Origin: Candidatus Saccharimonadia bacterium
GTDB lineage: Bacteria; Patescibacteriota; Saccharimonadia; UBA4664
Assembly (NCBI GenBank): GCA_038245115.1
Contig: JBBRSS010000007.1
Span: forward strand, 1-55,845
Reading direction: 5' to 3'
DNA: 55,845 nucleotides
The notes below the pieces were generated by a model. The model was not told the DNA's origin. It did not search any database and saw only the letters and a list, made by a program, of their open reading frames with translations. Each line of letters opens with the position of its first letter. Positions within the stretch are counted from its first letter, which is position 1. The position numbers and the translations under genes were made by a program. This document shows, in pieces, positions 11,751-42,927 of this stretch.

Positions 11751-11839
11751 TATGTATACGGCCGAATATTGCGCCAACAGATAGTATTGGTGTCACAAAT
11801 GAACTGTACAAAACTGGAAATCAGGATTAATATAGGCCT

Positions 11840-12637
11840 ATGAACCCTGATTTACTTATCCAAATGGGATTAACGCCTGCTCAAGCCAAAACATATCTCG
11901 AGCTGGTGAAGGCCGGCAGTCTGACGCCGCCGCAGCTAGCTAAGAAGATTGATGAGAGTCGGACCACGGCCTATATGGCGCTGGCGCGGTTGGAGGAGGT
12001 GGGGCTGGCTATTAAGCAGGCTGGCACCAAGAAGCAGACATACGAACCGGCCAGTCCGAGCGCGTTGGAGAAGTTTTTGGCTGACCGACAGGCAGATCTG
12101 GCGCGGACTGAGCGGGCTTATAGGGATGCGCTGCCGAATCTGTTGAGTTATTACTACACTTATCGCGGCAAACCGGGGGTGCGGTTCTTTGAGGGTGATG
12201 ACGGGCTGGAGAAGCTATACGAAGATATTTTGAGGACGCGCGCTACTGTCGATATTGTGCGTACGACGGCCGATGAGGAGAACTTTGGGGAGGGTCGAGA
12301 TGTTGGGTCGATTTTGGGGAAGTATCTCAACACGCGGGCGAAGCTCGATATTACTTCGCAACTGCTGGCTCCGGCGCTGCCAGGAGCAATAAAGTGGGCC
12401 GATGAGAACGATGAGCGGCTCAAGCGCAAAGTGACCTGGTTCCCGCCGGCTGCCTATACGGCGCCGGTGGAGATTAATGTGTACGGGAATAAGATATCGT
12501 TTATTTCGTTCGGCGATGAGGCTATTGGGACGATTATTGAGAGCCCGCAGATAGCCCTGGCGATGCGTGAGCTATATGCCATGGCGCAAATTGGAGCCGA
12601 AACTTTGATGGGGCGCGGGTATAAGATTGATTCATGA
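11840..12637 (+). CDS. TrmB-family transcriptional regulator
   Basis: N-terminal wHTH (LGL...QAKTY..L...RTTAY..L..L...GL), P.VRFFEG..G, IYGNKI..ISF...IES..IA. Confidence 0.9.
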   Translation: MNPDLLIQMGLTPAQAKTYLELVKAGSLTPPQLAKKIDESRTTAYMALARLEEVGLAIKQAGTKKQTYEPASPSALEKFLADRQADLARTERAYRDALPNLLSYYYTYRGKPGVRFFEGDDGLEKLYEDILRTRATVDIVRTTADEENFGEGRDVGSILGKYLNTRAKLDITSQLLAPALPGAIKWADENDERLKRKVTWFPPAAYTAPVEINVYGNKISFISFGDEAIGTIIESPQIALAMRELYAMAQIGAETLMGRGYKIDS

Positions 12638-18833: not shown

Positions 18834-19940
18834 TTGGCGAAGAAGGCGGCTGACGAAGAAACATTGGAGCGAACTGGCGGGTACTCGCCCGAAGTTGAGC
18901 GACTAATAGCAAAAGGCAAAGAGCAGGGTTATGTGACGCAGCAGGAAATTGCCGGCGTTTTGCCCGAAGCGGAAGAGAATCTCGAAGAGCTCGATGAGCT
19001 GTACGCGGCACTGCTGGAGCAGGGCGTGGAGATTACCGACCAAAAGGACTCATTGATCTGGGACAAGGACGACGACGACACCCCGGATACGAGCGAAGAT
19101 TACATCAAGGATATTGCTGATGACTCGGTGCGGTTGTACCTGCGCGAAATTGGTAAGATTCCGCTGCTGACCGGCGAGCAGGAAGTTTCGCTGGCTAAAC
19201 GCATAGAATCCGGCGACAAGGCGGCCAAGGACGCGATGGCTGAGGCCAACATGCGGCTAGTGGTGTCGATTGCCAAGAAGTACATCGGCCGCGGGTTGGA
19301 CTTGCTCGACCTCATTCAGGAGGGCAACACCGGGCTGCTGCGGGCCGTGGAGAAGTTTGACTACACCAAGGGTTACAAGTTTTCGACCTACGCTACATGG
19401 TGGATCCGTCAGGCGATTACGCGCGCGATTGCCGACCAGGCACGTACCATTCGTATTCCGGTGCACATGGTGGAGACGATTAACAAACTTATTCGTACTC
19501 AGCGCCGTTTGGTGCAGGAACTCGGCCGTGAGCCACTGCCCGAGGAAATTGCCGCCGAGATGGAGATGGACGTGGAGAAGGTCAACCACATCCTCAAGAT
19601 TAAGCAGGATATTGTGAGCCTTGAGGCGCCGGTGGGCGAAGAAGAGGATTCTCAGCTGGGTGACTTTATTGCCGATGAGGACTCGTTGACGCCGGAAGAA
19701 GCTGCTACGCACCAGCTCCTCAAGGAGCACGTGAATCAGGTGTTGGCATTGCTGACGCCGCGCGAGCAGAAGATTTTGCGGATGCGGTTTGGTCTGGAAG
19801 ACGGCCGAAGTCACACGCTCGAGGAGGTGGGCCAGGAATTTGGCGTCACACGTGAGCGTATTCGCCAGATTGAGGCCAAAGCCCTCGCGAAGTTGCGCAA
19901 GCACCGTGAGAGCAAGAAGCTCAAGGACTACTTGCGGTAG
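18834..19940 (+). CDS. rpoD: RNA polymerase primary sigma factor
   Basis: [52 protein letters not shown]. Confidence 0.98.
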
Positions 19941-19959
19941 TATTGGGGCCGGAATAGAA

Positions 19960-19989
19960 CCAAAAAGGAGCCAATTGGCTCCTTTTTGG
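19960..19989. terminator. Perfect 30-bp palindrome, likely terminator after rpoD
   Basis: CCAAAAAGGAGCCAATTGGCTCCTTTTTGG. Confidence 0.7.
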
Positions 19990-20028
19990 GTTGAATCAGA
20001 CATAGGCGTTTCTGTTATGCTTGAGTCT

Positions 20029-21141
20029 ATGGATAGACAAGAAGCTCAGATAGATCGCGAAGAGGGCGCAGATGTTGACCCATTCGAACTGGCGAAGCAG
20101 CAGGCGGCCGCACTTGAGCCACCGAGCTGGCTTGGAAATAATGCATCTGACTCAGAAGCGCGTGAGGCAGAACTTGTGAAACGGGCGGAAGAGGCGGAGT
20201 TGACTCCTGATATTTTGAGATGGAGAGAGGAGGCCGATCACGACGCCTTATTGGTTGGCAAGGCCCTCGGGCAGGGTGATCTCCCTAGGGCCGTAGGGGT
20301 TGCGTTGCAACTGCGGATTCATGAGCTGGCGGATCTCGGCATGGCCGTGGGTTCAGGTGAGAGGTCTGATGTCGAGCTGAATGACGTTACGCGGGCACGA
20401 CGAGACTTGGGATTTCTGCTATCGGGGTTAACTGTGGCCTTGGGCGCGCGCGACTGGCAGGCTGGTGTCGAGAACCAGACATATGTTTACTTCAGGGGTG
20501 CAAAGAAGGCCGGTAAGGAACGATTTGAGTCCGAGTACGACACCTGTGTTGACCGGTTCTATCCTGAGGGTGATGGCGATTTTGAGTGGGTGGATGATGA
20601 CGGTGGTGGCGGAGCGTATAAGGATGTGAATGGTAAGATGCCGGACAATAGCGAGGAAGTCCATTATCCTGGCAAGATACTCATCGCGGTTGATCCCGAT
20701 AAACGGATTAATTTTTCGTATTTTCACGAATTGGATAGTTCGGCGGTGCACTATAGGCAGACGATTTCTCGGATAAGCCTTAGCGGCAAGCCAGTTGATG
20801 ATGAGGCCGCGGATTTGAGTGTCAGACTTGATCTAGACCCCACGGCGCCCGCCGGGATTGCACTGGATATTGGTCGAAGCAGTTTCCGCTCCGAGACGTA
20901 CTCCCGACTGGGGGATTTGATGGGTAAACTACTCTCTGTGTCATCACCGGAGACGGGTAGCCATACATACGCGCCGTTCACCGAGAGTATGGTCGAGGAA
21001 TTTAAGAATGTGGCTGAATATCTAGCCGTGCATCAAGACTTGGTTCGCCGCCGTGTTGCCGAGACTAACGATAGTATGATGCCGATTAAACCCGAAGAGT
21101 CCGAAGCTAATCTTCGGCGAGTTGTCGAGAACGATAGTTAG
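20029..21141 (+). CDS. Hypothetical acidic protein
   Basis: Long ORF; start placed after rpoD, preceded by a TATGCT -10-like box. Confidence 0.7.
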   Translation: MDRQEAQIDREEGADVDPFELAKQQAAALEPPSWLGNNASDSEAREAELVKRAEEAELTPDILRWREEADHDALLVGKALGQGDLPRAVGVALQLRIHELADLGMAVGSGERSDVELNDVTRARRDLGFLLSGLTVALGARDWQAGVENQTYVYFRGAKKAGKERFESEYDTCVDRFYPEGDGDFEWVDDDGGGGAYKDVNGKMPDNSEEVHYPGKILIAVDPDKRINFSYFHELDSSAVHYRQTISRISLSGKPVDDEAADLSVRLDLDPTAPAGIALDIGRSSFRSETYSRLGDLMGKLLSVSSPETGSHTYAPFTESMVEEFKNVAEYLAVHQDLVRRRVAETNDSMMPIKPEESEANLRRVVENDS

Positions 21142-21890
21142 TCGGTTTTTAGCCCACGCCGCATTAGCTCGAACATTTGCTTCATGGCGCCTGCTATCTG
21201 GGGGCTCTCGATAATTGTACCCAACGCTTCCTCGCCAAACGATAGGATGGCGACTTTATTGCCGTAGATATTCCATTCTACGGGTGCATCGTAGAGCTTG
21301 GGGTTGAACCAGATGCGGTGGGTCAGATTGGCCTCATCTATGGATGGATCATGGTTTACGTTCGGCACATCAGGAGTGAGGGCAATGGTTTTAATGCCTA
21401 ATTTGGCTCGTTGGAGCTTAAATTTATCGTAGAAGGCAGCGCCCATGAATTTATCGTCGGCGGTGCTTCGCAGGAAATAAGTGGGTTGGCGGGTGCGCAA
21501 AATGTCCTCATAAACCTTGGTTATGCCTTCTTTGCCCTGATAGAACCGCACGCCGGGCTGCTCGGAGTAGGTGTAGAAATAGGTCATGAGCTGAGGCATG
21601 AGGCTACGGAGGCGATTTTCGTCGGTCATGATCTGCGTTCGCTTCTGTTCCATAAGCTTTTCGAGAACGGTAGGGTTGGCAGGTCGATAGGCCAGTTTGG
21701 CACCGGTTCCAGCATTTACGGCCAATTCGAGCTCAACTAATTGTTTGAGCACCTCATATGCATTGGTGCGAGTGATCTGGATTTTTAAGGCTAATTGAGG
21801 CGGAGTTAGGCTGCCGCCGGCAATGAGCGCGAGATAGGCCCGGCTTTGGGTTTGGTTGAGGCCGGCTTGTTCGAGTAATTCTGCATCCAT
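21138..21890 (-). CDS. TrmB-family transcriptional regulator (paralogue of 11840-12637)
   Basis: Shared GSLTPPQLA, RT.AY, Y.Y.Y...PGVRF..G..G, YEDILRTR, Y.APVE.N.YGNK, GTIIESPQIA. Confidence 0.9.
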   Translation of the reverse strand: MDAELLEQAGLNQTQSRAYLALIAGGSLTPPQLALKIQITRTNAYEVLKQLVELELAVNAGTGAKLAYRPANPTVLEKLMEQKRTQIMTDENRLRSLMPQLMTYFYTYSEQPGVRFYQGKEGITKVYEDILRTRQPTYFLRSTADDKFMGAAFYDKFKLQRAKLGIKTIALTPDVPNVNHDPSIDEANLTHRIWFNPKLYDAPVEWNIYGNKVAILSFGEEALGTIIESPQIAGAMKQMFELMRRGLKTD

Positions 21891-21989
21891 GCCTGGAATA
21901 TAGCACGGATGCGTTGTCTCGTCAATCAACAATTGACAGTATTTAAATAGAGTTTCTATCTGTTGAGCTGTTTAAGACGCTTGCGCTAA

Positions 21990-22018
21990 TTGACATAAAC
22001 TAATTTCGGTGGTATGCT
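21990..22018 (+). promoter_or_regulatory. Sigma70 promoter divergent from TrmB
   Basis: TTGACA (21990-21995), 17 nt ending TGG, TATGCT (22013-22018). Confidence 0.7.
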
Positions 22019-22024
22019 TGTTCT

Positions 22025-22400
22025 CGTTCAGTCAGCTGCGACACAATCGTTCCGGCTGAAAGTCAAGCTTACAAGTATCAAGAGGTAGGACGCGCCGCAC
22101 GAGTCAGAAGCTTATGCGCAGGTAGTTTGGTTGAGCCCGTATGGGTTCCCGAGCCCTGCCGAGCGCGTCTTTTTCATTGCTCCTAACTTTAGGGTTGGGA
22201 CAGCTCGGGGAGAGAATGCATCCTTGTCGGGCACGCGCGAAGGTATACCTAGTAACGCGTAAGGAGACAGCCTGGCCTTTCCTTGGCCCGCTGCACCGTA
22301 GTTTGTAGTGAGATTCACGCGCGATGATCAGAAGGCACAGCGCCCGTCACGCGTAATCTCTCTAGAAATAGAGAGCGAACTTTACATTAAACGCTGTTTT
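22025..22400 (+). ncRNA. Candidate structured non-coding RNA or long leader
   Basis: No plausible ORF directly behind the promoter; nested stems incl. TTCAGTC/GGCTGAA, GGACGCGC/GCGCGTCT, GAGCCC-GTAT-GGGTTC, CTCTCTA-GAAA-TAGAGAG. Confidence 0.5.
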
Positions 22401-22409
22401 TTAGCTGAG

Positions 22410-22766
22410 CTAAGAAGGATTGCGGTGCTCCAGTCGCTCGACGCGGGTGCGGACATCGAGAAACTCGCTTCGGCGCACAGTGTCGGACAGACCCCATTTG
22501 ACCTCACGCATGTCGACCTTTAGCTCGGAGACATCATTTTCCAGATTATCGAGTCGACTGTTGACCTTCGCAAAATTGTCGGTGACTTCGTTGAACCCCT
22601 GGCCGATCTGGAGTGAGAGGGTATCATTGGCGCGATCGATCATTGCTGGCACCTTGGTCTCAATCGCTGCCTCGATCATGGGTGGAACTTTAGTGTCGAT
22701 GGCCGAGTTGATACTGGTATCCATGATACCTTTGATGGCCGAGAGATCTTGAGTGGTTAGTGACAT
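22410..22766 (-). CDS. Small coiled-coil hypothetical protein
   Basis: MSLTTQDLSAIK..., heptad pattern, internal repeat IDTKVPPMIE/IETKVPAMID. Confidence 0.75.
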   Translation of the reverse strand: MSLTTQDLSAIKGIMDTSINSAIDTKVPPMIEAAIETKVPAMIDRANDTLSLQIGQGFNEVTDNFAKVNSRLDNLENDVSELKVDMREVKWGLSDTVRRSEFLDVRTRVERLEHRNPS

Positions 22767-22842
22767 GGAGTTGTCTTTCATGGGTTAAGTATATCTGATT
22801 TATGAAATGAGAATACCGAACAATAACCAAACATGCAAGCAT

Positions 22843-23058
22843 AAATAGTTCGCACGAAGCTGCCTCTGGTATCGTCCAAAAGTATACCGGAGACAGGTTC
22901 GAGAGAACCAAAAAGTACCTTTCAATGTTGACCGCGATAATGATTGCGATATCGAGTTTTCTCGAATCGTGTTTGAAGTAATTTGAACGCGAGGGAGAGA
23001 GCTCGATAGAAGGTCGCGGCTCCAAAACGGGGTGTAAATCCCGGGGAAGGAGCCTACC
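22843..23058 (+). ncRNA. Candidate structured RNA tract upstream of the NTase
   Basis: CTGCCTCTGGTAT/ATACCGGAGACAG, GGTTC-GAGA-GAACC, TCGTGTTTGAA-GTAA-TTTGAACGCGA, GGCTCC/GGAGCC covering the RBS. Confidence 0.45.
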
Positions 23059-23766
23059 ATGGCTCTCGCAATGCTCGTAATCGCCTGGGCGGAAATTGCC
23101 GTAGGATGGTTCATCGCCAGGTTGGTGATGAACCGGGTACGCTACGGGACGTTTCTACGTCCCTGGTGGGTCTGGTCCGCACGAGGCACGGAGCACATCC
23201 TTGCCTCGTATAGGAAGGTTGAGGAGCGCAACGCAGCGCTCCTCAACCAGCTGGCTTCACGGCTGGCCGGCCACCGAACCGTCGTGTTCGGATCGTCGGT
23301 TCAGAAGGGGCGGTTCGCCCACTGGCGGTTGTGGGAGCAACTGTACGGGCAATCCGATATTGACCTCATGGTAGAGGTCGACATGCCCACTTGGCTGAGT
23401 TGGGTGAAGTTGGCATACGGCGACAGCGCCCTCGTCGACGCGGCCACCACTCAGCAAGCCTGCTGCGCAGGCTGCTGCGTATACGTCGACGGCCAGATGA
23501 TCTCTGGCCTACGCGGCTACCAGAAGTTTTCTCAGACCAGGATTCCCCGCCTTGAGGCGGCGGAGCAGGTCCTCGGCATCAGCCTTTCGGGGCTGAATGC
23601 CGAGGTGGATGTTTTTCTTTTCCCGCACGAGTTTGTGCGGGGGGAGATCGATATCTCAGTTTGGAACGACCCTGAGAGGTCGTTCCGGAGTGAGGTGCTC
23701 GCGGGCACCTCACTCCGGGAAATCCGTCCACGGCGGGTGCCCCTAAAGGAGTTTTTCCCGCGCTAG
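23059..23766 (+). CDS. Pol-beta-superfamily nucleotidyltransferase-like protein with N-terminal TM helix
   Basis: VVFGSS, SDIDLMV (DxD), later VDVFLF; AAGGAG RBS; hydrophobic N-terminus. Confidence 0.65.
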   Translation: MALAMLVIAWAEIAVGWFIARLVMNRVRYGTFLRPWWVWSARGTEHILASYRKVEERNAALLNQLASRLAGHRTVVFGSSVQKGRFAHWRLWEQLYGQSDIDLMVEVDMPTWLSWVKLAYGDSALVDAATTQQACCAGCCVYVDGQMISGLRGYQKFSQTRIPRLEAAEQVLGISLSGLNAEVDVFLFPHEFVRGEIDISVWNDPERSFRSEVLAGTSLREIRPRRVPLKEFFPR

Positions 23767-24107
23767 GTGTAGATCTGACGCGGAAAGACCCCACCGTGCC
23801 GGAGGGCTTTAAATCTCCGGGATAGCGCCAAGGAAACCCCGTTCTGCGGGGTGGCGCACTGTCCATAATGCCTCTGGGGAGCGGCTTTGTAGCTCCCCAC
23901 CCATCCCGAGGGTTTAATCGAACGATTGAGTTTTCAGGTTGGGGCGCATGTTCCAATAAAGTACCTTTTGACAGATATAGTTCGTGAATTTCCTGACCTG
24001 GTTTCAGGTTGGATAGCTGGCAAGCTAATTAAATTCAAGCCGGCTACCCGACCTGCATCGACGCCACCAAAAGTGTGGCTGCATGGTTTGGGAGATTCGA
24101 GTCTGAG
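23767..24107 (+). ncRNA. Candidate structured intergenic RNA tract
   Basis: CCGGAG/CTCCGG, GCGCCA..ACCCCG/CGGGGTGGCGC, TGGGGAGC/GCTCCCCA, CAGGTTGG.TAGCTGGC/GCCGGCTACCCGACCTG stems. Confidence 0.45.
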
Positions 24108-25109
24108 ATGACCATTATCGAGACCTTGGCCTCTGCCGATCTTGTCATCGCCGTCGGGTCGGTCGACGGCGTCTTGACCGCCGCGGCGGTCAAGCGGCTG
24201 AGTGGTCGGCCCGACCTGGAGGTTGTGTTTACGCAACCTTTTCAGGTTAACCAGCTTCCGGTTGGGAGCTGGAGCGGCCGACGGGTCGTGCTCGTCGACC
24301 TCGCGGTGAATAACCGCGAGCCGGCGATGACGAAGGCGTTCATCTCCCGGGTGTTTGCGCCCGGGATGAACGTTCTGCTCGCCGTCATTGACGAGCACGA
24401 CGCCGAGGCGTGGGCGGAGGTTTTCTCCAACCACGCCTCGGCCACGGGAGATTGGTTGCCACAGTGGATGGCAGTCGCGCCCCAGAGCCAGGGGGCCGAG
24501 GGCGGCCCCGATTCGTCCGGAGAGGTTCTCCGGCGGGCGCTGGTGGCGGAGGATGTGGTCATTGACGACCACACCGCCGCACTGTTGGCAGCCGCCGACT
24601 CGGCGGACCACGGCGACTTTTCGTTGCCGCTGGCCGGGGTCGTGAACTCGGCGGTGAAGTCGGCCATCGGCGACAACCGCCGTCGGGTCCACCTCGTCGA
24701 CCTACTGGCCGCCGGGCCAGAGGTCGACGATCAGGTTCGCGCCTGGGTCGACGAGTACGAGGAGATGACGGCCAACCAGGCCGAGCTCCTCACCAACGCG
24801 GTAGTCGACCTGGGCGATGGAATCGTTCGGGTCGACACCGACGGCCGCCGGGTCGACTCTACCTCACTTCTGTTCGCGCTGTACAAGCGCGGTAGAGTAG
24901 CAGTGCTCGCTGGCACGTCGTCCTTCAACAAGGCTGCCGGCCGGGCCGTGCCGGTGGTGTCGATCGCCACAGGCGACCGGGCGCTCGACGTCCTGGCCGC
25001 CATCAAGGCGGCCGGCGTGTCGGCAGGTGGGTTCGCCCAGAAGGCGAACGTCGATCCGGCCGATGAGGAGAGGGCGATCGCCGCGTTTCGCGCCGCGCTG
25101 ACTGCCTGA
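24108..25109 (+). CDS. DHH/DHHA1-like phosphoesterase (divergent)
   Basis: SVDGVLTAA, LVDLA, IDEHD (DHH variant), AD.AD, C-terminal SAGGFAQKAN like the DHHA1 GGH.AAG motif; very GC-rich. Confidence 0.65.
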   Translation: MTIIETLASADLVIAVGSVDGVLTAAAVKRLSGRPDLEVVFTQPFQVNQLPVGSWSGRRVVLVDLAVNNREPAMTKAFISRVFAPGMNVLLAVIDEHDAEAWAEVFSNHASATGDWLPQWMAVAPQSQGAEGGPDSSGEVLRRALVAEDVVIDDHTAALLAAADSADHGDFSLPLAGVVNSAVKSAIGDNRRRVHLVDLLAAGPEVDDQVRAWVDEYEEMTANQAELLTNAVVDLGDGIVRVDTDGRRVDSTSLLFALYKRGRVAVLAGTSSFNKAAGRAVPVVSIATGDRALDVLAAIKAAGVSAGGFAQKANVDPADEERAIAAFRAALTA

Positions 25110-25440
25110 ATTTCACTTCTCCTAAGCACGAGAGGCCAAAAAACTACTTAAACCTGAACCAGCAGGCGAACCTGAGACAAGGCGAAAGGAATCCACGATC
25201 TGTGGAGCGCCCCGTCGCACGTGACGGCTTAAGCGGTACCAACCGCATCACGTAACTTGCCTGAGCCTTATCAGGTACCGGTCGGGGGCACTGCGCCCCC
25301 GACCACCCAACCCGAGGGTTCCACACCTTCTGCGCCCCGACTGCTCATGCGAGCGATTCGGAGGGTGGTCGGAGCGGTGGAATCCTCAGGCTGGGGTATT
25401 GGTGAACTTGTGGTATGTATGAGGGCCAGTTCGTACAGGC
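25110..25440 (+). ncRNA. Candidate structured RNA tract
   Basis: Consecutive hairpins TCCAC/GTGGA, CCGTCGC/GTGACGG, GCGGT/ACCGC, CCTGA/TCAGG, GGTCGGGGGC/GCCCCCGACC, GAGGGTTCCAC/GTGGAATCCTC. Confidence 0.45.
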
Positions 25441-25510
25441 GCAGTTGAAAAAATGCGCTTATTATGTTTATATAGGTTGGTCTATCCAACTGTGATTGTT
25501 TGGAGTTTTT

Positions 25511-25666
25511 ATGCCCGAACGAAGTGGCTCAGGATTGCCTCGAAAGTTGACACCGGCCGAACGAAGGGCGGCGAACAAAGCATACACCGTGATTACTGAA
25601 GCACAGATAGCGCAAGCGGTGAGGAAGCATTTCGCTGCCAAAAGAAAGCGGCAGGAACCGGAGTAA
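25511..25666 (+). CDS. Basic mini-protein, 51 aa (MPERSGSGLPRKLTPAERRAANKAY...KRKRQEPE)
   Basis: GGAG RBS at 25502; translated by hand (below the ORF-track cutoff). Confidence 0.55.
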   Translation: MPERSGSGLPRKLTPAERRAANKAYTVITEAQIAQAVRKHFAAKRKRQEPE

Positions 25667-25692
25667 TACCGCAACTGGGTGGATATTTGCTT

Positions 25693-25752
25693 GGCCGGAG
25701 GGATTGTCCCCTCCGGTCGGGCCCAACCTGTACGTCGAAGTGCCACTTGAAA
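25693..25752 (+). repeat. Conserved hairpin element, copy A
   Basis: GGCCGGAGGG..CCCCTCCGGTCGGGCCCAACCTGTAC...CACTTGAAA, similar to 26020-26082. Confidence 0.85.
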
Positions 25753-25818
25753 AAGCGGGCTTTTTTGTTTTATATATAGTGTTATCCGTCCAATACGGAC
25801 CCGTTTGGGGGGGTTGTG

Positions 25819-25992
25819 ATGGCAGAAAATGAAGATGAGTGCAGGTCCGAGGTATTACGGCTGGAGCGGGAAGCGGCCAGAAAGTGGTTTAACAGCCTGA
25901 CTCCAAAACAACAGGAAGAGGCTAAGGATAGGTATTCCAGGGCGGACTTTCCGAAACGCCGCAAACCTGGCAAACGAAACGGCCTCAAGTGA
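25819..25992 (+). CDS. Basic mini-protein, 57 aa (MAENEDECRSEVLRLEREAARKWF...KRRKPGKRNGLK)
   Basis: G-rich RBS at about 25807-25813; translated by hand. Confidence 0.55.
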   Translation: MAENEDECRSEVLRLEREAARKWFNSLTPKQQEEAKDRYSRADFPKRRKPGKRNGLK

Positions 25993-26019
25993 TAAGCTTG
26001 TGGCCGGAAAATAGAGTGC

Positions 26020-26082
26020 GGCCGGAGGGCTAATACCCCTCCGGCCGGGCCAAACTTGTACTCTGAAGCCAAGCACTTTAAG
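26020..26082 (+). repeat. Conserved hairpin element, copy B
   Basis: GGCCGGAGGG..CCCCTCCGGCCGGGCCAAACTTGTAC...GCACTTTAAG. Confidence 0.85.
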
Positions 26083-26106
26083 ATTAGATCTTAAGAGGCC
26101 GTTTTT

Positions 26107-27495
26107 TTGCCAGAATTAAGTGAGAAATGCGGTGTATTTGGGGTCGTTACGACTAGGCCTGACGCTGCACGCCTAACTTACTACGGGTTATGGGCATTAC
26201 AGCACAGGGGGCAGGAGAGTTCCGGAATTGCCAGTATTGATGCTCAGGGAATTCATCTGCGAGCTGGCGCGGGTTTGGTAGCGCACGTGTACGACGAAGC
26301 GGATCTGGTTCGGTTGAAGGGCAAGATGTCGGTGGGGCATAATCGTTACGCGACGTCCGGCGACAGTGATGGAGCCCATCTGCAGCCGATAGTTCACCCG
26401 GAAGTTGGCTTGGCGTTTGCGCACAACGGCAACTTGCCGACGACAGACTTGTTGAAAGCTTTTTTGGCAGATCACGGCGTCTCAACGGTTGGGCTAAATG
26501 ATTCGGATATGATGGCCGCCAGCATTGTTTGTTATATGCAGATGGGCAAGCCGATGATAGACGCAATAGAAGCAGCTTGGCCCCTTTTTACAGGGGCTTT
26601 TTCGTGCGTGGCGATGGACGGAGTGAATTTGGTGGGATTTCGGGATGAGTGCGGAATCCGGCCGTTGTCGTTGGGCAGCCTAGCCGACGGATTTGTTGTG
26701 GCCTCGGAGACATGTGCGTTTGATACCATTGGCGCGGCGTTCTTGCGCGACATTAAGCCGGGCGAGATTGTGTCGGTGGGCCCATTGGGAGTGAAGAACC
26801 GTCAGGTTAGAAAATCGCGCACCGCGTTGGACGTTTTCGAATACGTATATTTTGCCCGGCCGGATAGCTTGGTGATGGGTCGCAAAGTGAATGAAGTGCG
26901 CAAGCAATTGGGGCGCAATTTGGCGGCAGAATTTCCACTGAAGGCTGACATCGTAATTCCCGTACCGGATTCGGCGATTCCGGCGGCGCTGGGTTATGCC
27001 GAGGCTAGCGGCATGCGCTTTGATCACGGGTTTATTAAAAATCGCTATATTCACCGGACCTTTATTCGACCGACACAAGATCTGCGGGAGCGCGACGTAC
27101 GTACTAAGCTTAATCCAGTGCCGGAGGTATTGATGGGGCGTGACGTGGTGGTAATTGATGATTCGATTGTGCGCGGGACCACGACGGGACAGATTGTGGC
27201 GTTGCTGTACGGCGCCGGAGCGCGCAAGGTCCACGTGCTGGTGAGCTCGCCACCGGTGAAGTATCCGGATTTCTACGGCATCAATACGCCCAGCCAGGAT
27301 GATTTGATTGGCGCCAATAAGAGCGTGGAGGAGATTCGCCAGCATATTGGCGCGGAATCTCTGGGATATTTGTCTATTGAGGGGACTATCCAGGCTACTG
27401 GTCACCCTCGTAGTAAGCTCAACATGTCGTGTTTTGACGGGGTCTACCCCATAGATATTGGTGCCCGGGCTCAGACAGTAACTGCACGGGCTTAA
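26107..27495 (+). CDS. purF: Amidophosphoribosyltransferase
   Basis: EKCGVFG Ntn Cys, LQHRGQE, HNRYAT, AHNGN, FARPDS, VIDDSIVRGTT. Confidence 0.97.
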   Translation: MPELSEKCGVFGVVTTRPDAARLTYYGLWALQHRGQESSGIASIDAQGIHLRAGAGLVAHVYDEADLVRLKGKMSVGHNRYATSGDSDGAHLQPIVHPEVGLAFAHNGNLPTTDLLKAFLADHGVSTVGLNDSDMMAASIVCYMQMGKPMIDAIEAAWPLFTGAFSCVAMDGVNLVGFRDECGIRPLSLGSLADGFVVASETCAFDTIGAAFLRDIKPGEIVSVGPLGVKNRQVRKSRTALDVFEYVYFARPDSLVMGRKVNEVRKQLGRNLAAEFPLKADIVIPVPDSAIPAALGYAEASGMRFDHGFIKNRYIHRTFIRPTQDLRERDVRTKLNPVPEVLMGRDVVVIDDSIVRGTTTGQIVALLYGAGARKVHVLVSSPPVKYPDFYGINTPSQDDLIGANKSVEEIRQHIGAESLGYLSIEGTIQATGHPRSKLNMSCFDGVYPIDIGARAQTVTARA

Positions 27496-42828: not shown

Positions 42829-42853
42829 TAAGCGTCAGCCGAAGAGCTGAACT

Positions 42854-42902
42854 AAGCATAAACGGATTCGAACAAAAAATGTGTTCGAATCCGTTTATGC
42901 TT
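42854..42902. terminator. 21-bp perfect inverted repeat between rnj and ftsK
   Basis: AAGCATAAACGGATTCGAACA (42854-42874) / TGTTCGAATCCGTTTATGCTT (42882-42902). Confidence 0.55.
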
Positions 42903-42927
42903 GTGATCTGATATAATGCTTAACAAT

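Follow-up and report, generated by a model that had tools for sequence, protein, structure and literature searches.

The sequence analysed here, referred to as the window, is a 55,845-nt stretch of the + strand of contig JBBRSS010000007.1 from a Candidatus Saccharimonadia bacterium (GCA_038245115.1). An accessory island of ∼5.5 kb (∼19941-25440) lies in it between rpoD and purF, extending from the rpoD stop codon to the ancestral rpoD terminator. In the island-free genome G006 of the same genus, rpoD and purF are spaced by only ∼560 nt, and alignment of the two genomes places the right junction of the island at this terminator, a hairpin followed by a T-run (25441..25467, + strand) which aligns with the rpoD terminator of G006. 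The site directly behind rpoD serves as a hotspot in several genera belonging to one Saccharimonadia family, and its turnover is quick, with the TrmB-like gene (see below) split in G025 and the T1 RNA truncated in G009. Profile searches of the island ORFs (Pfam, NCBIfam, PADLOC, PHROGs) gave no match to transposase or integrase families, in agreement with the initial annotation, and no PADLOC system was matched in the island; the sole PF00589 match of the genome is on a different contig. Two small basic ORFs on the + strand (25511-25666 and 25819-25992) had been taken as part of the locus, but lie outside the island. Each is followed by a GGCCGGAGGG...CCCTCCGG hairpin (direct repeat D1), and G006 carries small ORFs with the same hairpin at the equivalent position, without protein similarity to those of the window by BLASTP.

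The left part of the island contains a gene for a 374-aa hypothetical protein (20017..21141, + strand), a variable cargo gene that matches nothing in Pfam, NCBIfam, PADLOC, PHROGs or Atlas, nor, by tblastx, in G025 and G022. It is followed by a gene for a TrmB-like winged-helix regulator on the - strand (21141..21932; PF01978, scoring 36.1 bits with the cut-off at 25.6), the true start of which is likely the ATG at 21890. Orthologs (59-63% identity) are restricted to G009, G022 and G025, and a paralog (44%) is present in the window at 11837-12604. Divergent from this gene is a sigma-70-type promoter (21990..22018, + strand; TTGACA-17-TATGCT), which the initial annotation had correctly recognized. 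It has 10 of 12 consensus matches plus a TG extension, and is the top-scoring + strand site within 19900-26200. The promoter is kept in three relatives, and the TTGACA box and the spacing are conserved across the four sequences. Among 26 family genomes, four carry the TrmB ortholog, and the same four have T1 and the long form of the R1 hairpin (both described below). The divergent promoters and this co-occurrence, which involves only four genomes, suggest that the regulator may control the locus.

The promoter precedes T1 (22025..22385, + strand), a candidate multi-stem structured RNA of ∼350 nt. On the + strand, T1 is more stably folded than its dinucleotide-shuffled controls (z -3.0 to -3.5), which does not hold for the - strand (z +0.3). 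Its 91 predicted pairs are 91.2% paired, and 26 of them are compensatory across three sequences, a count reached by none of 500 shuffles and compared with 1-10 in slid controls; these counts come from three full sequences only, and from the very alignment that also yielded the structure, so that the controls are biased towards it. A search of 53 genomes of the order with the T1 model (R2) gave matches in three. A conserved hairpin terminates T1, and G009 retains a shortened form. An Rfam search, which the initial annotation had proposed as a check, returned nothing at the gathering score and only junk hits when relaxed to E≤5. T1 is a candidate novel RNA, apparently undescribed. A pairing between T1 and R1 was also considered, in which the 7-nt T1 motif CAGAAGG complements the conserved bulge of R1; the motif is absent in G022, and such a pairing is not supported.

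Convergent with T1 is ORF123 (22410..22781, - strand), encoding a coiled-coil protein, relatives of which adjoin T1 or rpoD in G009, G022 (partial) and G016. The divergent intergenic region T2 (22782..23058, + strand) then provides a structured leader for ORF235, and the final hairpin of T2 is predicted to sequester the GGAAGGAG ribosome-binding site. Over a 28-nt stretch, T2 shares 96% identity with the end of a G009 contig. The initial annotation proposed a single long TrmB-controlled transcript, running from 21990 through the locus and processed into ncRNA modules and mRNAs. The strength and conservation of the promoter and the + orientation of every cargo ORF and R1 copy would fit such a transcript, as would the hammerhead-like sequences of relatives (see below), which would cut long transcripts. 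It is nevertheless very unlikely, given that T1 and the cargo are separated by the oppositely oriented ORF123, that T1 closes with a conserved hairpin and is shortened in G009, that the hyper-structured segment starts only at ∼22800, and that the mini-ORFs are outside the island. The opposite strand of ORF123 and the terminal hairpin of T1 imply that ORF235 and ORF344 need a transcript start in T2.

The two proteins encoded between the tracts have the folds that had been assigned to them from sequence. ORF235 (23059..23766, + strand) is probably a pol-beta-type nucleotidyltransferase (NTase) with an N-terminal helix. In structure comparison, its top 10 VIA matches all have the NTase fold (best Z 5.7), with Foldseek giving only E ∼0.4, and its GSS and DxD residues show no variation across five sequences. 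A single genome among 401 from the class carries ORF235. ORF344 (24108..25109, + strand) is modelled with a pLDDT of 95.7 and is a divergent DHH/DHHA1-fold phosphoesterase, with Foldseek matches to NrnA, PggH, GdpP and RecJ (E 6e-9 to 1e-6). It has no Pfam DHH/DHHA1 match and no sequence match to solved structures, and none of its 64 homologs in Patescibacteria has a Pfam domain. ORF344 shares the two-domain fold of DHH/DHHA1 proteins (NrnA, PggH, GdpP, pAp phosphatase, RecJ core), and an acidic residue and a His are invariant at the DHH position (D95-E96-H97). It differs from them in motif I, which is GSVDG, and in having GGFAQK in place of the DHHA1 GGGH (G308 and K312 invariant, F309 nearly so). 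The GC content of the gene is 66-70%, compared to ∼53% for the genome, confirming an earlier observation.

A composite RNA element is located between ORF235 and ORF344 (23799..23947, + strand; R1 model 26 bits, E 2e-4), and consists of the S0 hairpin, the motif U (GCGCCA-AAGGAA-hairpin-UGGCGC), the H hairpin, and a short form of R1 (∼55 nt, 23893-23947). Two 151-nt pieces from a run belonging to another study (23801-23951 and 23950-24100) also match positions 23801-24100 letter for letter. A second H hairpin is followed by the long form of R1 (∼100 nt) at 25280..25399 on the + strand, ∼40 nt inside the right island end, with an R1 model match at 25299-25399 scoring 105.7 bits on the + strand versus 35.1 on the - strand. 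In an alignment of seven R1 copies, paired cells make up 95.7% and compensatory changes affect 8 of 34 pairs, which none of 500 shuffles equals; several G.U pairs and an 8-nt bulge, ACCUUCUG, are conserved. The R1 hairpin is found in 8 of 26 family genomes, and the short form is conserved in four further genera, adjoining rpoD in three of these. A co-oriented ORF starts 31-232 nt downstream in all 12 R1 copies examined, a figure which overstates the support because copies from related genomes are not independent. In G007, a consensus promoter lies upstream of R1, and a ribosome-binding site with ATG follows it. The U and H motifs are common to the window, G025 a/b/c, G009 and L051. The S0-U-H-R1 element, with its compensatory changes and without an Rfam family, is a second candidate novel structured RNA on the + strand, and with T1 it supports the earlier proposal of novel ncRNAs. 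ORF344 itself is preceded by a conserved 5' leader (24005..24107, + strand) containing two hairpins and a ribosome-binding site, which is 83% identical to L051 106-199. In L051 the ORF that follows this leader is unrelated and has 385 aa (373 aa if counted from its ATG), and the same leader and R1 flank unrelated, exchangeable ORFs in the two islands.

About 41% of 22025-26100 is non-coding (2412 coding of 4076 nt by ORF coordinates), close to the ∼40% first estimated. Such tracts are long for a 1.3 Mb genome, and the quick turnover of the hotspot, with its split TrmB gene and truncated T1, might suggest that they are decayed genes. This is highly improbable, since T1, R1, U-H and the leader are better conserved than neighbouring proteins and show compensatory changes together with frame-breaking indels, and tblastx against related loci found no coding match in the tracts.

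The arrangement of R1 recalls integron cassettes, attC sites and CALINs, in which co-oriented, repeated imperfect hairpins separate exchangeable genes of mostly unknown function. R1 might accordingly be the DNA recombination site of an integron-like cassette array, folding as single-stranded DNA in the manner of attC and used in trans by the single tyrosine recombinase of the genome or by an integrase elsewhere, with each cargo unit bringing its own R1. The copies are co-oriented and repeated (two in the window, three in G025), their base is conserved and their middle variable (55 versus 100 nt) as in attC, and differing, mostly unknown cargo lies between the same flanks in islands at one hotspot. 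The attC consensus motifs are RYYYAAC and GTTRRRY; by eye, the 5' base ACCCAAC fits the former in five of seven long R1 copies, and GTTGGAT at 24008-24014 fits the latter. However, the core motifs are only partial, as the 3' base of R1 is GCTGGGN rather than GTTRRRY in five of seven copies. It is the bottom strand that recombines in integrons, whereas the sense (top) strand of R1 folds well and has conserved G.U pairs. No integrase is present in or near any island, the one PF00589 gene per genome being distant; R1 in G007 sits within a promoter-to-ATG leader; and there are at most three copies per locus, with much larger units of 1.4-2.8 kb that include long, structured non-coding parts. We consider the recombination-site explanation unlikely.

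A possible role for R1 in RNA processing finds a parallel in the early region of phage T7, where RNase III sites are intercistronic hairpins that process and stabilize RNA. Like these, R1 is a long imperfect hairpin with an asymmetric internal loop, co-oriented and placed between the genes of a foreign block. Unlike these, it is a predicted element with the conserved bulge and the upstream stems S0, U and H, is found at a hotspot of a bacterial chromosome, and is part of a promoter-proximal leader in G007. Processing is also plausible because homologous islands carry sequences resembling type III hammerheads (RF00008), a class known from bacterial and phage intergenic regions. Matches were obtained in G025 (two) and L051, with scores of 33.7-43.3 bits that all fall short of the gathering score (48.5); their alignments include the core motifs CUGAnGAG and CGAAA and stems I-III, and they lie just upstream of the cargo leaders. 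No hammerhead core was found in the island of the window, which at the equivalent place has the short R1 followed by 60 nt of unrelated sequence. The island of G022 carries an AAA_5 ATPase and a partner as cargo.

The four tracts were described at first as nearly continuous hairpins, several of them favouring the + strand. On that strand all four are indeed more stably folded than dinucleotide-shuffled sequences (z -3.0 for T1, -7.1 for T2, -3.1 for T3 and -5.4 for T4). The strand preference is clear for T1, moderate for T2 (z -5.9 versus -3.9 in a direct comparison) and T3, and absent for T4. The folding is not specific to the tracts, as ORF235 and ORF344 are structured to at least the same degree within their coding sequences (z -6.3 and -11.8 relative to dinucleotide shuffles, -11.8 and -10.2 relative to synonymous-codon permutations). 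The energy excess over the synonymous permutations is ∼25% for ORF235 and ∼19% for ORF344. As controls, TrmB and purF give synonymous-permutation z values of -1.3 and +0.9; ORF123 (z +1.5) and the 374-aa gene are not hyper-structured, and the hyper-structured segment begins only at about 22800. The 23-24 kb and 24-25 kb bins rank first and second of 1304 genome bins for foldability. Among 300-nt tiles, eight of nine reach z -4 to -10.8, versus -2 to +2 for 18 high-GC control tiles from other phyla. The equivalent segments of G025 and G022 are also hyper-structured, as are unrelated cargo genes (synonymous-permutation z -11.7 for G025 ORF308, -5.0 for L051 ORF385) and the DHH homolog of G128 (-6.2).

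These dense hairpins could instead be a DNA-level trait of recently acquired foreign DNA, caused by palindrome-generating mutation or by selection on single-stranded DNA during natural transformation, in which case only T1, and perhaps R1, would be RNAs. The two strands share the greater part of the hyper-structure, with T4 and a portion of ORF344 folding equally well on both, and ORF235 contains a loopless 34-nt palindrome within its coding sequence, features that leave room for a DNA-level cause. The low G.U fraction (0.118 versus 0.17-0.19 in flanking genes) and the GC content of the cargo, which exceeds that of the host in every carrier genome, point the same way. So does the poor conservation of helix positions: ORF344 and its 51% homolog have 27 of about 350 pairs in common. 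On the other hand, in all three genes the sense strand exceeds its complement in excess stability and has 2-3 times as many G.U pairs, T2 and T3 favour the + strand, and the high-GC controls from other phyla lack hyper-structure. The persistence of hyper-structure in 31-51% identical homologs of distant genomes argues that selection has been sustained, and against a short-lived mutational footprint, and a purely DNA-level origin is quite unlikely. The best explanation for the segment from ∼22800 to 25440, coding sequence included, is selection on synonymous sites for dense local pairing, mainly in the sense strand, and it seems that selection acts on foldedness in general. A comparable excess over sequence-order controls, running throughout the coding sequence, is known as genome-scale ordered RNA structure (GORS) in some RNA viruses. 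The island resembles these in that the helices themselves are not conserved, and differs in being bacterial chromosomal DNA, assembled from DNA reads, that encodes no replicase.

Taken together, we favour, with a probability of roughly 45%, a recombinase-less cargo hotspot, the mRNAs of which are structured, and processed or stabilized, at the RNA level. It resembles recombinase-less, defence-island-like hotspots in its variable, sporadic cargo at one core-gene junction, and is set apart by a conserved RNA framework and hyper-structured cargo, a combination that to our knowledge is not described for such hotspots. The framework comprises the TrmB-like regulator, the divergently promoted T1 and the S0/U/H/R1 leader before downstream genes. 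Exchangeable cargo genes sit between its parts, here those of a putative membrane-anchored NTase-like protein and a DHH/DHHA1 protein, and may be expressed as unusually stable, highly structured mRNAs. Leader hairpins of the R1 type would delimit and control these mRNA units at the RNA level, and in relatives self-cleaving type III hammerheads would do so as well. In the exchange of cargo, the shared framework sequences may double as homology arms.

The proteins encoded by rpoD and purF in the window are 93-99% identical to those of G006, a genome of the same genus in which the two genes are separated by only ~560 nt. In the source genome (1.31 Mb, 38 contigs, ~53% GC), rpoD (18834-19940, + strand) is followed by a hypothetical gene (20017-21141, +) whose 374-aa product has no Atlas match, a TrmB-like gene (21141-21932, -), and hairpin-rich + strand tracts, T1 (22025-22385), T2 (22782-23058), T3 (23767-24107) and T4 (25110-25440), which alternate with ORF123 (22410-22781, -), ORF235 (23059-23766, +) and ORF344 (24108-25109, +); purF (26107-27495, +) and then polA lie to the right. 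A hairpin with a T-run at 25441-25467 aligns with the G006 rpoD terminator. Because of this alignment and the short rpoD-purF gap in G006, ~19941-25440 is a ~5.5-kb accessory island inserted straight after the rpoD stop codon. The terminator hairpin now following rpoD (19960-19989) is a different one, brought in with the island, and the one homologous to that of G006 now stands at the far island end, after the hairpin element R1.

The initial annotation had counted two mini-ORFs (25511-25666 and 25819-25992) as part of the locus. These lie outside the island, as do their GGCCGGAGGG hairpins, and small ORFs with the same hairpin occupy that place in G006, with no BLASTP alignment between the mini-ORFs and the position-equivalent G006 ORFs. 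Both mini-ORFs are followed by a GC hairpin and then by GGGCC(C/A)AAC(C/T)TGTAC (25690-25740 and 26019-26068; direct repeat D1, 82%), and G007 has a similar GGGCCCAAAC downstream of its short R1, directly in front of a ribosome-binding site and ATG. The earlier observation that the locus encodes no transposase or integrase agrees with profile searches of the island ORFs, which gave no match; the source genome and three relatives each have a single tyrosine recombinase gene (PF00589), far from the island. No tRNA or tmRNA was found, the tracts have no second copy elsewhere in the source genome (blastn), and island DNA has no match in phage and plasmid collections.

The TrmB-like protein matches the winged-helix family PF01978 over residues 20-87 (36.1 bits, cut-off 25.6). 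A second TrmB-like gene in the window (11837-12604, +) encodes a protein 44% identical to that of the island, and its orthologs (42-43%) are more widespread in the family (G008, G010, G012 and G015); by appearance it is the core copy, and that of the island a diverged paralog. In G025 (L011 5152-5972), the island TrmB ortholog is apparently split into two ORFs (373178-373609 and 373591-373959), suggesting that the regulator is decaying there.

The consensus promoter proposed at 21990-22018 is the top + strand site of the region (TTGACA-17-TATGCT, TG-extended, 10/12) and is also kept in relatives. From this promoter to a terminal hairpin that is itself conserved, T1 can be aligned to the regions next to TrmB in G025 and G022 (genus g4), and invariant sequence blocks alternate with variable stems; T1 of G009 is reduced to the first ~95 nt and last ~25 nt. 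The structure predicted with RNAalifold has 91 pairs in 12 helices, with 91.2% of cells paired. It shows 26 compensatory pairs, compared with 11.3 +/- 2.4 in shuffles (0/500 as high) and 1-10 with slid partners, in counts that come from three sequences and from a structure derived from that same alignment. Folding of T1 is strand-specific (z -3.5 on the + strand, +0.3 on the - strand), and a coding region in T1 is excluded since the indels are not multiples of three. That the tracts are decayed genes is very improbable. A covariance model of the T1 3' domain (R2) finds T1 in 3/53 genomes of the order and in none of the other loci searched, and a T1 motif scan of metagenome contigs gave 0 matches. 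RNase P RNA, some motifs of which look alike by eye, was ruled out: rnpB is on contig C17 of the source genome (264 bits), and the RNase P models do not match T1. A pairing of T1 CAGAAGG with the R1 bulge CCUUCUG was also dropped, the motif not being conserved in G022.

ORF123 lies downstream of T1 and convergent with it, not only in the window but also in G009 and, reduced to a fragment, in G022. The initial annotation had taken the locus as a single long transcript under TrmB control. The orientation of ORF123 and the starting point of the structured segment both contradict this model, which is now quite improbable. Its figure of ~40% non-coding sequence stands, at 41% of 22025-26100 by ORF coordinates, and on the + strand all four tracts fold better than their dinucleotide shuffles (z -3.0, -7.1, -3.1 and -5.4 for T1 to T4).

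The second RNA candidate is R1, present in the window as a long form in T4 (25299-25399) and a short form in T3 (23893-23947). A 93-nt piece of T4 has 80-86% identity to sequences in G025 (three copies), G022, G009 and the metagenome contig L051. R1 is a single long imperfect hairpin, with base CCCAACC paired with GGCUGGG (including a conserved A.C mismatch), an invariant 8-nt 5' bulge ACCUUCUG and a variable tip. Across seven copies, 95.7% of cells are paired and 8/34 pairs are compensatory (0/500 shuffles as high). Conservation extends to several U.G and G.U pairs, and the R1 model scores 106 bits on the + strand of the window vs 35 on the - strand. The short form (~55 nt) has the base but not the middle; it is conserved in four further genera, adjoining rpoD in three. 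Three extra stems precede most copies, namely the S0 hairpin, U (a two-stem motif, GYGCCA-AAGGAA-hairpin-UGGYGC) and the GC hairpin H, all of which are present in T3.

In G007 a TTGACA-17-TAATAT promoter lies 45 nt upstream of the short R1, and a ribosome-binding site with ATG ~50 nt downstream. A co-oriented ORF starts 31-232 nt downstream of R1 in 12/12 copies examined, which are related and so not independent. The genes after R1 are diverse, including a DHH protein, a small ORF, purF (twice), a CSD-like protein, DUF378 and unknowns; an assignment of the G009 ORF after R1 as purF was rejected. On the basis of this placement, the co-oriented ORFs and the diversity of genes, we take S0-U-H-R1 to be a leader-type RNA element belonging to this hotspot, rather than a metabolite-specific riboswitch. 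Scans with the R1 motif returned 22 loci in metagenome contigs, only three with R1 (L051, L064 and a partial copy in L071; L064 appears to match G022, with the same 109.8-bit score), 17 loci in genome contigs, of which the 12 outside Saccharimonadia lack R1, and two loci in viral contigs, neither with R1. A strong local hairpin in a low-GC stretch at window 42847-42908 (GC-corrected z about -5 on both strands) gives weak R1-model matches (12.7-15 bits). In a run from another study, two 151-nt pieces are identical to window 23801-24100, and 25 differences occur in the piece that covers 24800-24982, within ORF344. At the low depth of this run, the comparison gives no more than a hint that T3 is more constrained than the ORF344 gene.

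Repeated hairpins between genes invite comparison with integrons; on that view R1 would act as single-stranded DNA. There are two R1 copies in the window, 1.4 kb apart, and three in G025. The core sites of attC are R'' (RYYYAAC) and R' (GTTRRRY). Read by eye against this consensus, the R1 5' motif fits RYYYAAC in 5/7 long copies, but the 3' motif is not GTTRRRY (GCTGGGN in 5/7, the other two also deviating). R1 therefore differs from integron attC sites and CALIN elements in its R''/R' pair, and the island has no integrase. We regard an integron-like role as unlikely.

In agreement with the earlier proposal that the tracts are novel, an Rfam scan gave no match at the gathering score to T1-T4 or elsewhere in the window, and Rfam 15 at E<=5 returned just four implausible matches (13-23 bits). 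T1 and S0-U-H-R1 are thus two candidate new RNA families, and a limited literature search (hammerhead ribozymes, integron attC, Patescibacteria/Saccharibacteria) found no description of them. To our knowledge, almost no regulatory RNA is known in Saccharimonadia.

Leader sequences are shared between loci with different cargo. The segment directly upstream of ORF344 (24005-24095) has 83% identity to positions 106-199 of L051, where the leader precedes an unrelated 385-aa ORF (373 aa from ATG) and then U-H-R1. The cargo of G022 comprises an AAA_5 ATPase and a 453-aa unknown, and that of G025 unknowns and a CSD-like protein. Directly upstream of the L051 leader is a type III hammerhead-like sequence (RF00008, 33.7 bits), and two more occur in G025 (43.3 and 40.5 bits) in a repeated ~165-nt module between cargo units; all score lower than the RF00008 gathering score of 48.5 bits, with the CUGAnGAG and CGAAA core motifs and stems I-III visible in the alignments. 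In the window, a regular-expression scan of both strands of 19941-26106 for the hammerhead core (CUGAnGA, GAAA) found none, and there is no Rfam match. The only candidate type III hammerhead of the source genome (C1:20795-20852, +; 30.9 bits, below cut-off), with a visible CUGAUGAG...CGAAAC core, is unrelated to the island, and G022 has a candidate on its contig C6 (41.2 bits).

The enzyme labels given earlier to the cargo proteins were reasonable, the DHH assignment being well supported at the fold level and the NTase assignment moderately so. ORF344 has 64 homologs, all hypothetical, from Patescibacteria where named, and none with a Pfam domain. The protein itself has no Pfam (PF01368, PF02272) or NCBIfam match at E<=0.1, and its profile gave no meaningful match to PDB sequences. 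Its AF2 model (pLDDT 95.7) has 88 Foldseek matches in the PDB at E<=0.001; among the matches listed, all are DHH-family proteins (NrnA, PggH, GdpP, RecJ and pAp phosphatase, at E 6e-9 to 1e-6, and an inorganic pyrophosphatase). ORF344 is accordingly predicted from its model to have the two-domain DHH/DHHA1 fold. The DHH position reads DEH (D95-E96-H97, invariant), and the GGGH position is GGFAQK in the window protein, with G308 and K312 invariant and F309 nearly so. The family is sporadic (3/401 genomes of the phylum), and none was found in viral contigs. In G128, a distant Patescibacteria genome, a homolog with 51% identity (L076, G128:C1:312149-316078; GC 61% vs 34-47% in the flanks) adjoins a DEAD/DEAH helicase, with a divergent TrmB-like gene ~800 nt off.

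ORF235 has five relatives and an N-terminal helix, and its family occurs in 1/401 genomes of the class. It has no Pfam match. Residues G78-S79-S80 and D100-x-D102, invariant in five sequences, fit the G[SG] and DxD signature that pol-beta-superfamily nucleotidyltransferases have within a beta-strand core. The top 10 VIA matches of its model (pLDDT 74.8) are all pol-beta NTases, with Z only 4.2-5.7, and Foldseek is weak (E about 0.4). Within the gene, window 23685-23718 is a 34-nt near-perfect palindrome without a loop (17-nt arms, 94% complementary), overlapping the codons for RSFRSEVLAG, residues that are mostly invariant in five homologs.

Excess folding extends through the coding sequence of the island. 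By dinucleotide shuffling of 300-nt tiles over 22800-25500, z is -4.0 to -10.8 in 8/9 tiles, compared with values within +/-2.2 for TrmB, purF, polA and the hypothetical gene, and -2.0 to +2.0 in 18 control tiles from three unrelated loci with 58-66% GC. Among GC-corrected 1-kb bins of the whole genome, 23001-24000 and 24001-25000 occupy ranks 1 and 2 of 1304 (-2.03 and -2.08; next bin -1.14, sd 0.48). When synonymous codons were permuted, keeping protein and codon usage, folding energy was -533.5 for ORF344 vs -446.7 +/- 8.5 in permutations (z -10.2) and -378.2 vs -301.9 +/- 6.5 for ORF235 (z -11.8), with controls at z -1.3 (TrmB) and +0.9 (purF). Lying below protein- and codon-preserving controls in folding energy, both genes resemble GORS. 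The helices are short and local, with a median span of 24 nt vs 40-48 nt in flanking genes. Cargo elsewhere has the same property: z is -11.7 for ORF308 of G025, -6.2 for the G128 DHH homolog and -5.7 for its helicase neighbour, and -5.0 for ORF385 of L051, and GC is raised across the T1-to-R1 segments of G025 and G022, where z is -3 to -10, with values near 0 in the flanks. ORF344 and its 51% homolog have only 27 of about 350 pairs in common (null 2.8 +/- 4.1). Helix positions are mostly not conserved, so that the target of selection appears to be general foldedness.

Hairpins arising purely at the DNA level, in foreign DNA, offer another explanation. In 3/3 genes, excess stability is greater on the sense strand, where G.U pairs are also 2-3 times more numerous; the folding signal is nonetheless mostly symmetric between strands, and ORF235 holds the loopless palindrome. 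We favour an RNA-level cause, and consider a purely DNA-level one improbable. Selection of this strength for base-pairing at synonymous sites would be expected in RNA viruses; for bacterial genes on a chromosome it would not, and we know of no report of it there. Since unrelated cargo of other genomes is hyper-structured as well, this points to a shared, unexplained constraint on the expression, stabilisation or transfer of accessory genes.

We tentatively interpret the island as a recombinase-less cargo hotspot behind rpoD, with a probability of about 0.45. It would consist of a conserved framework (the TrmB-like regulator, T1, ORF123 and the S0-U-H-R1 leaders) and of cargo genes that may be expressed as very highly structured mRNAs. 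These would be delimited and controlled at the RNA level, here by R1-type leaders, which may be processed, and in relatives by hammerhead cleavage in addition; the shared framework sequences could provide the homology for cargo exchange. Transcription, processing, control by TrmB and a benefit of hyper-structure are all steps that we infer.

A more radical possibility, which we hold to be very improbable, is that the framework-bounded segment is a DNA template for ribozyme-released, nuclease-resistant, perhaps circular coding RNAs. Each unit would be a cargo mRNA excised by ribozymes, type III hammerheads in relatives and here possibly S0-U-H-R1 as an unrecognised ribozyme. T1 would be a dedicated cofactor RNA, and the RNA ends would be acted on by the NTase-like and DHH enzymes. 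If true, protein-coding genes of ultra-small epibiotic bacteria would live in the manner of retrozymes or viroids.

Under the cargo-hotspot interpretation, both candidate RNA families are tied to a site of gene exchange. For work on nucleotide and RNA metabolism, new targets are offered by the divergent DHH family, with its 64 homologs and no Pfam domain, and by the NTase-like family. If the pattern is general, foldedness and raised GC could mark mobile cargo in candidate-phyla-radiation genomes without recognisable mobility genes.
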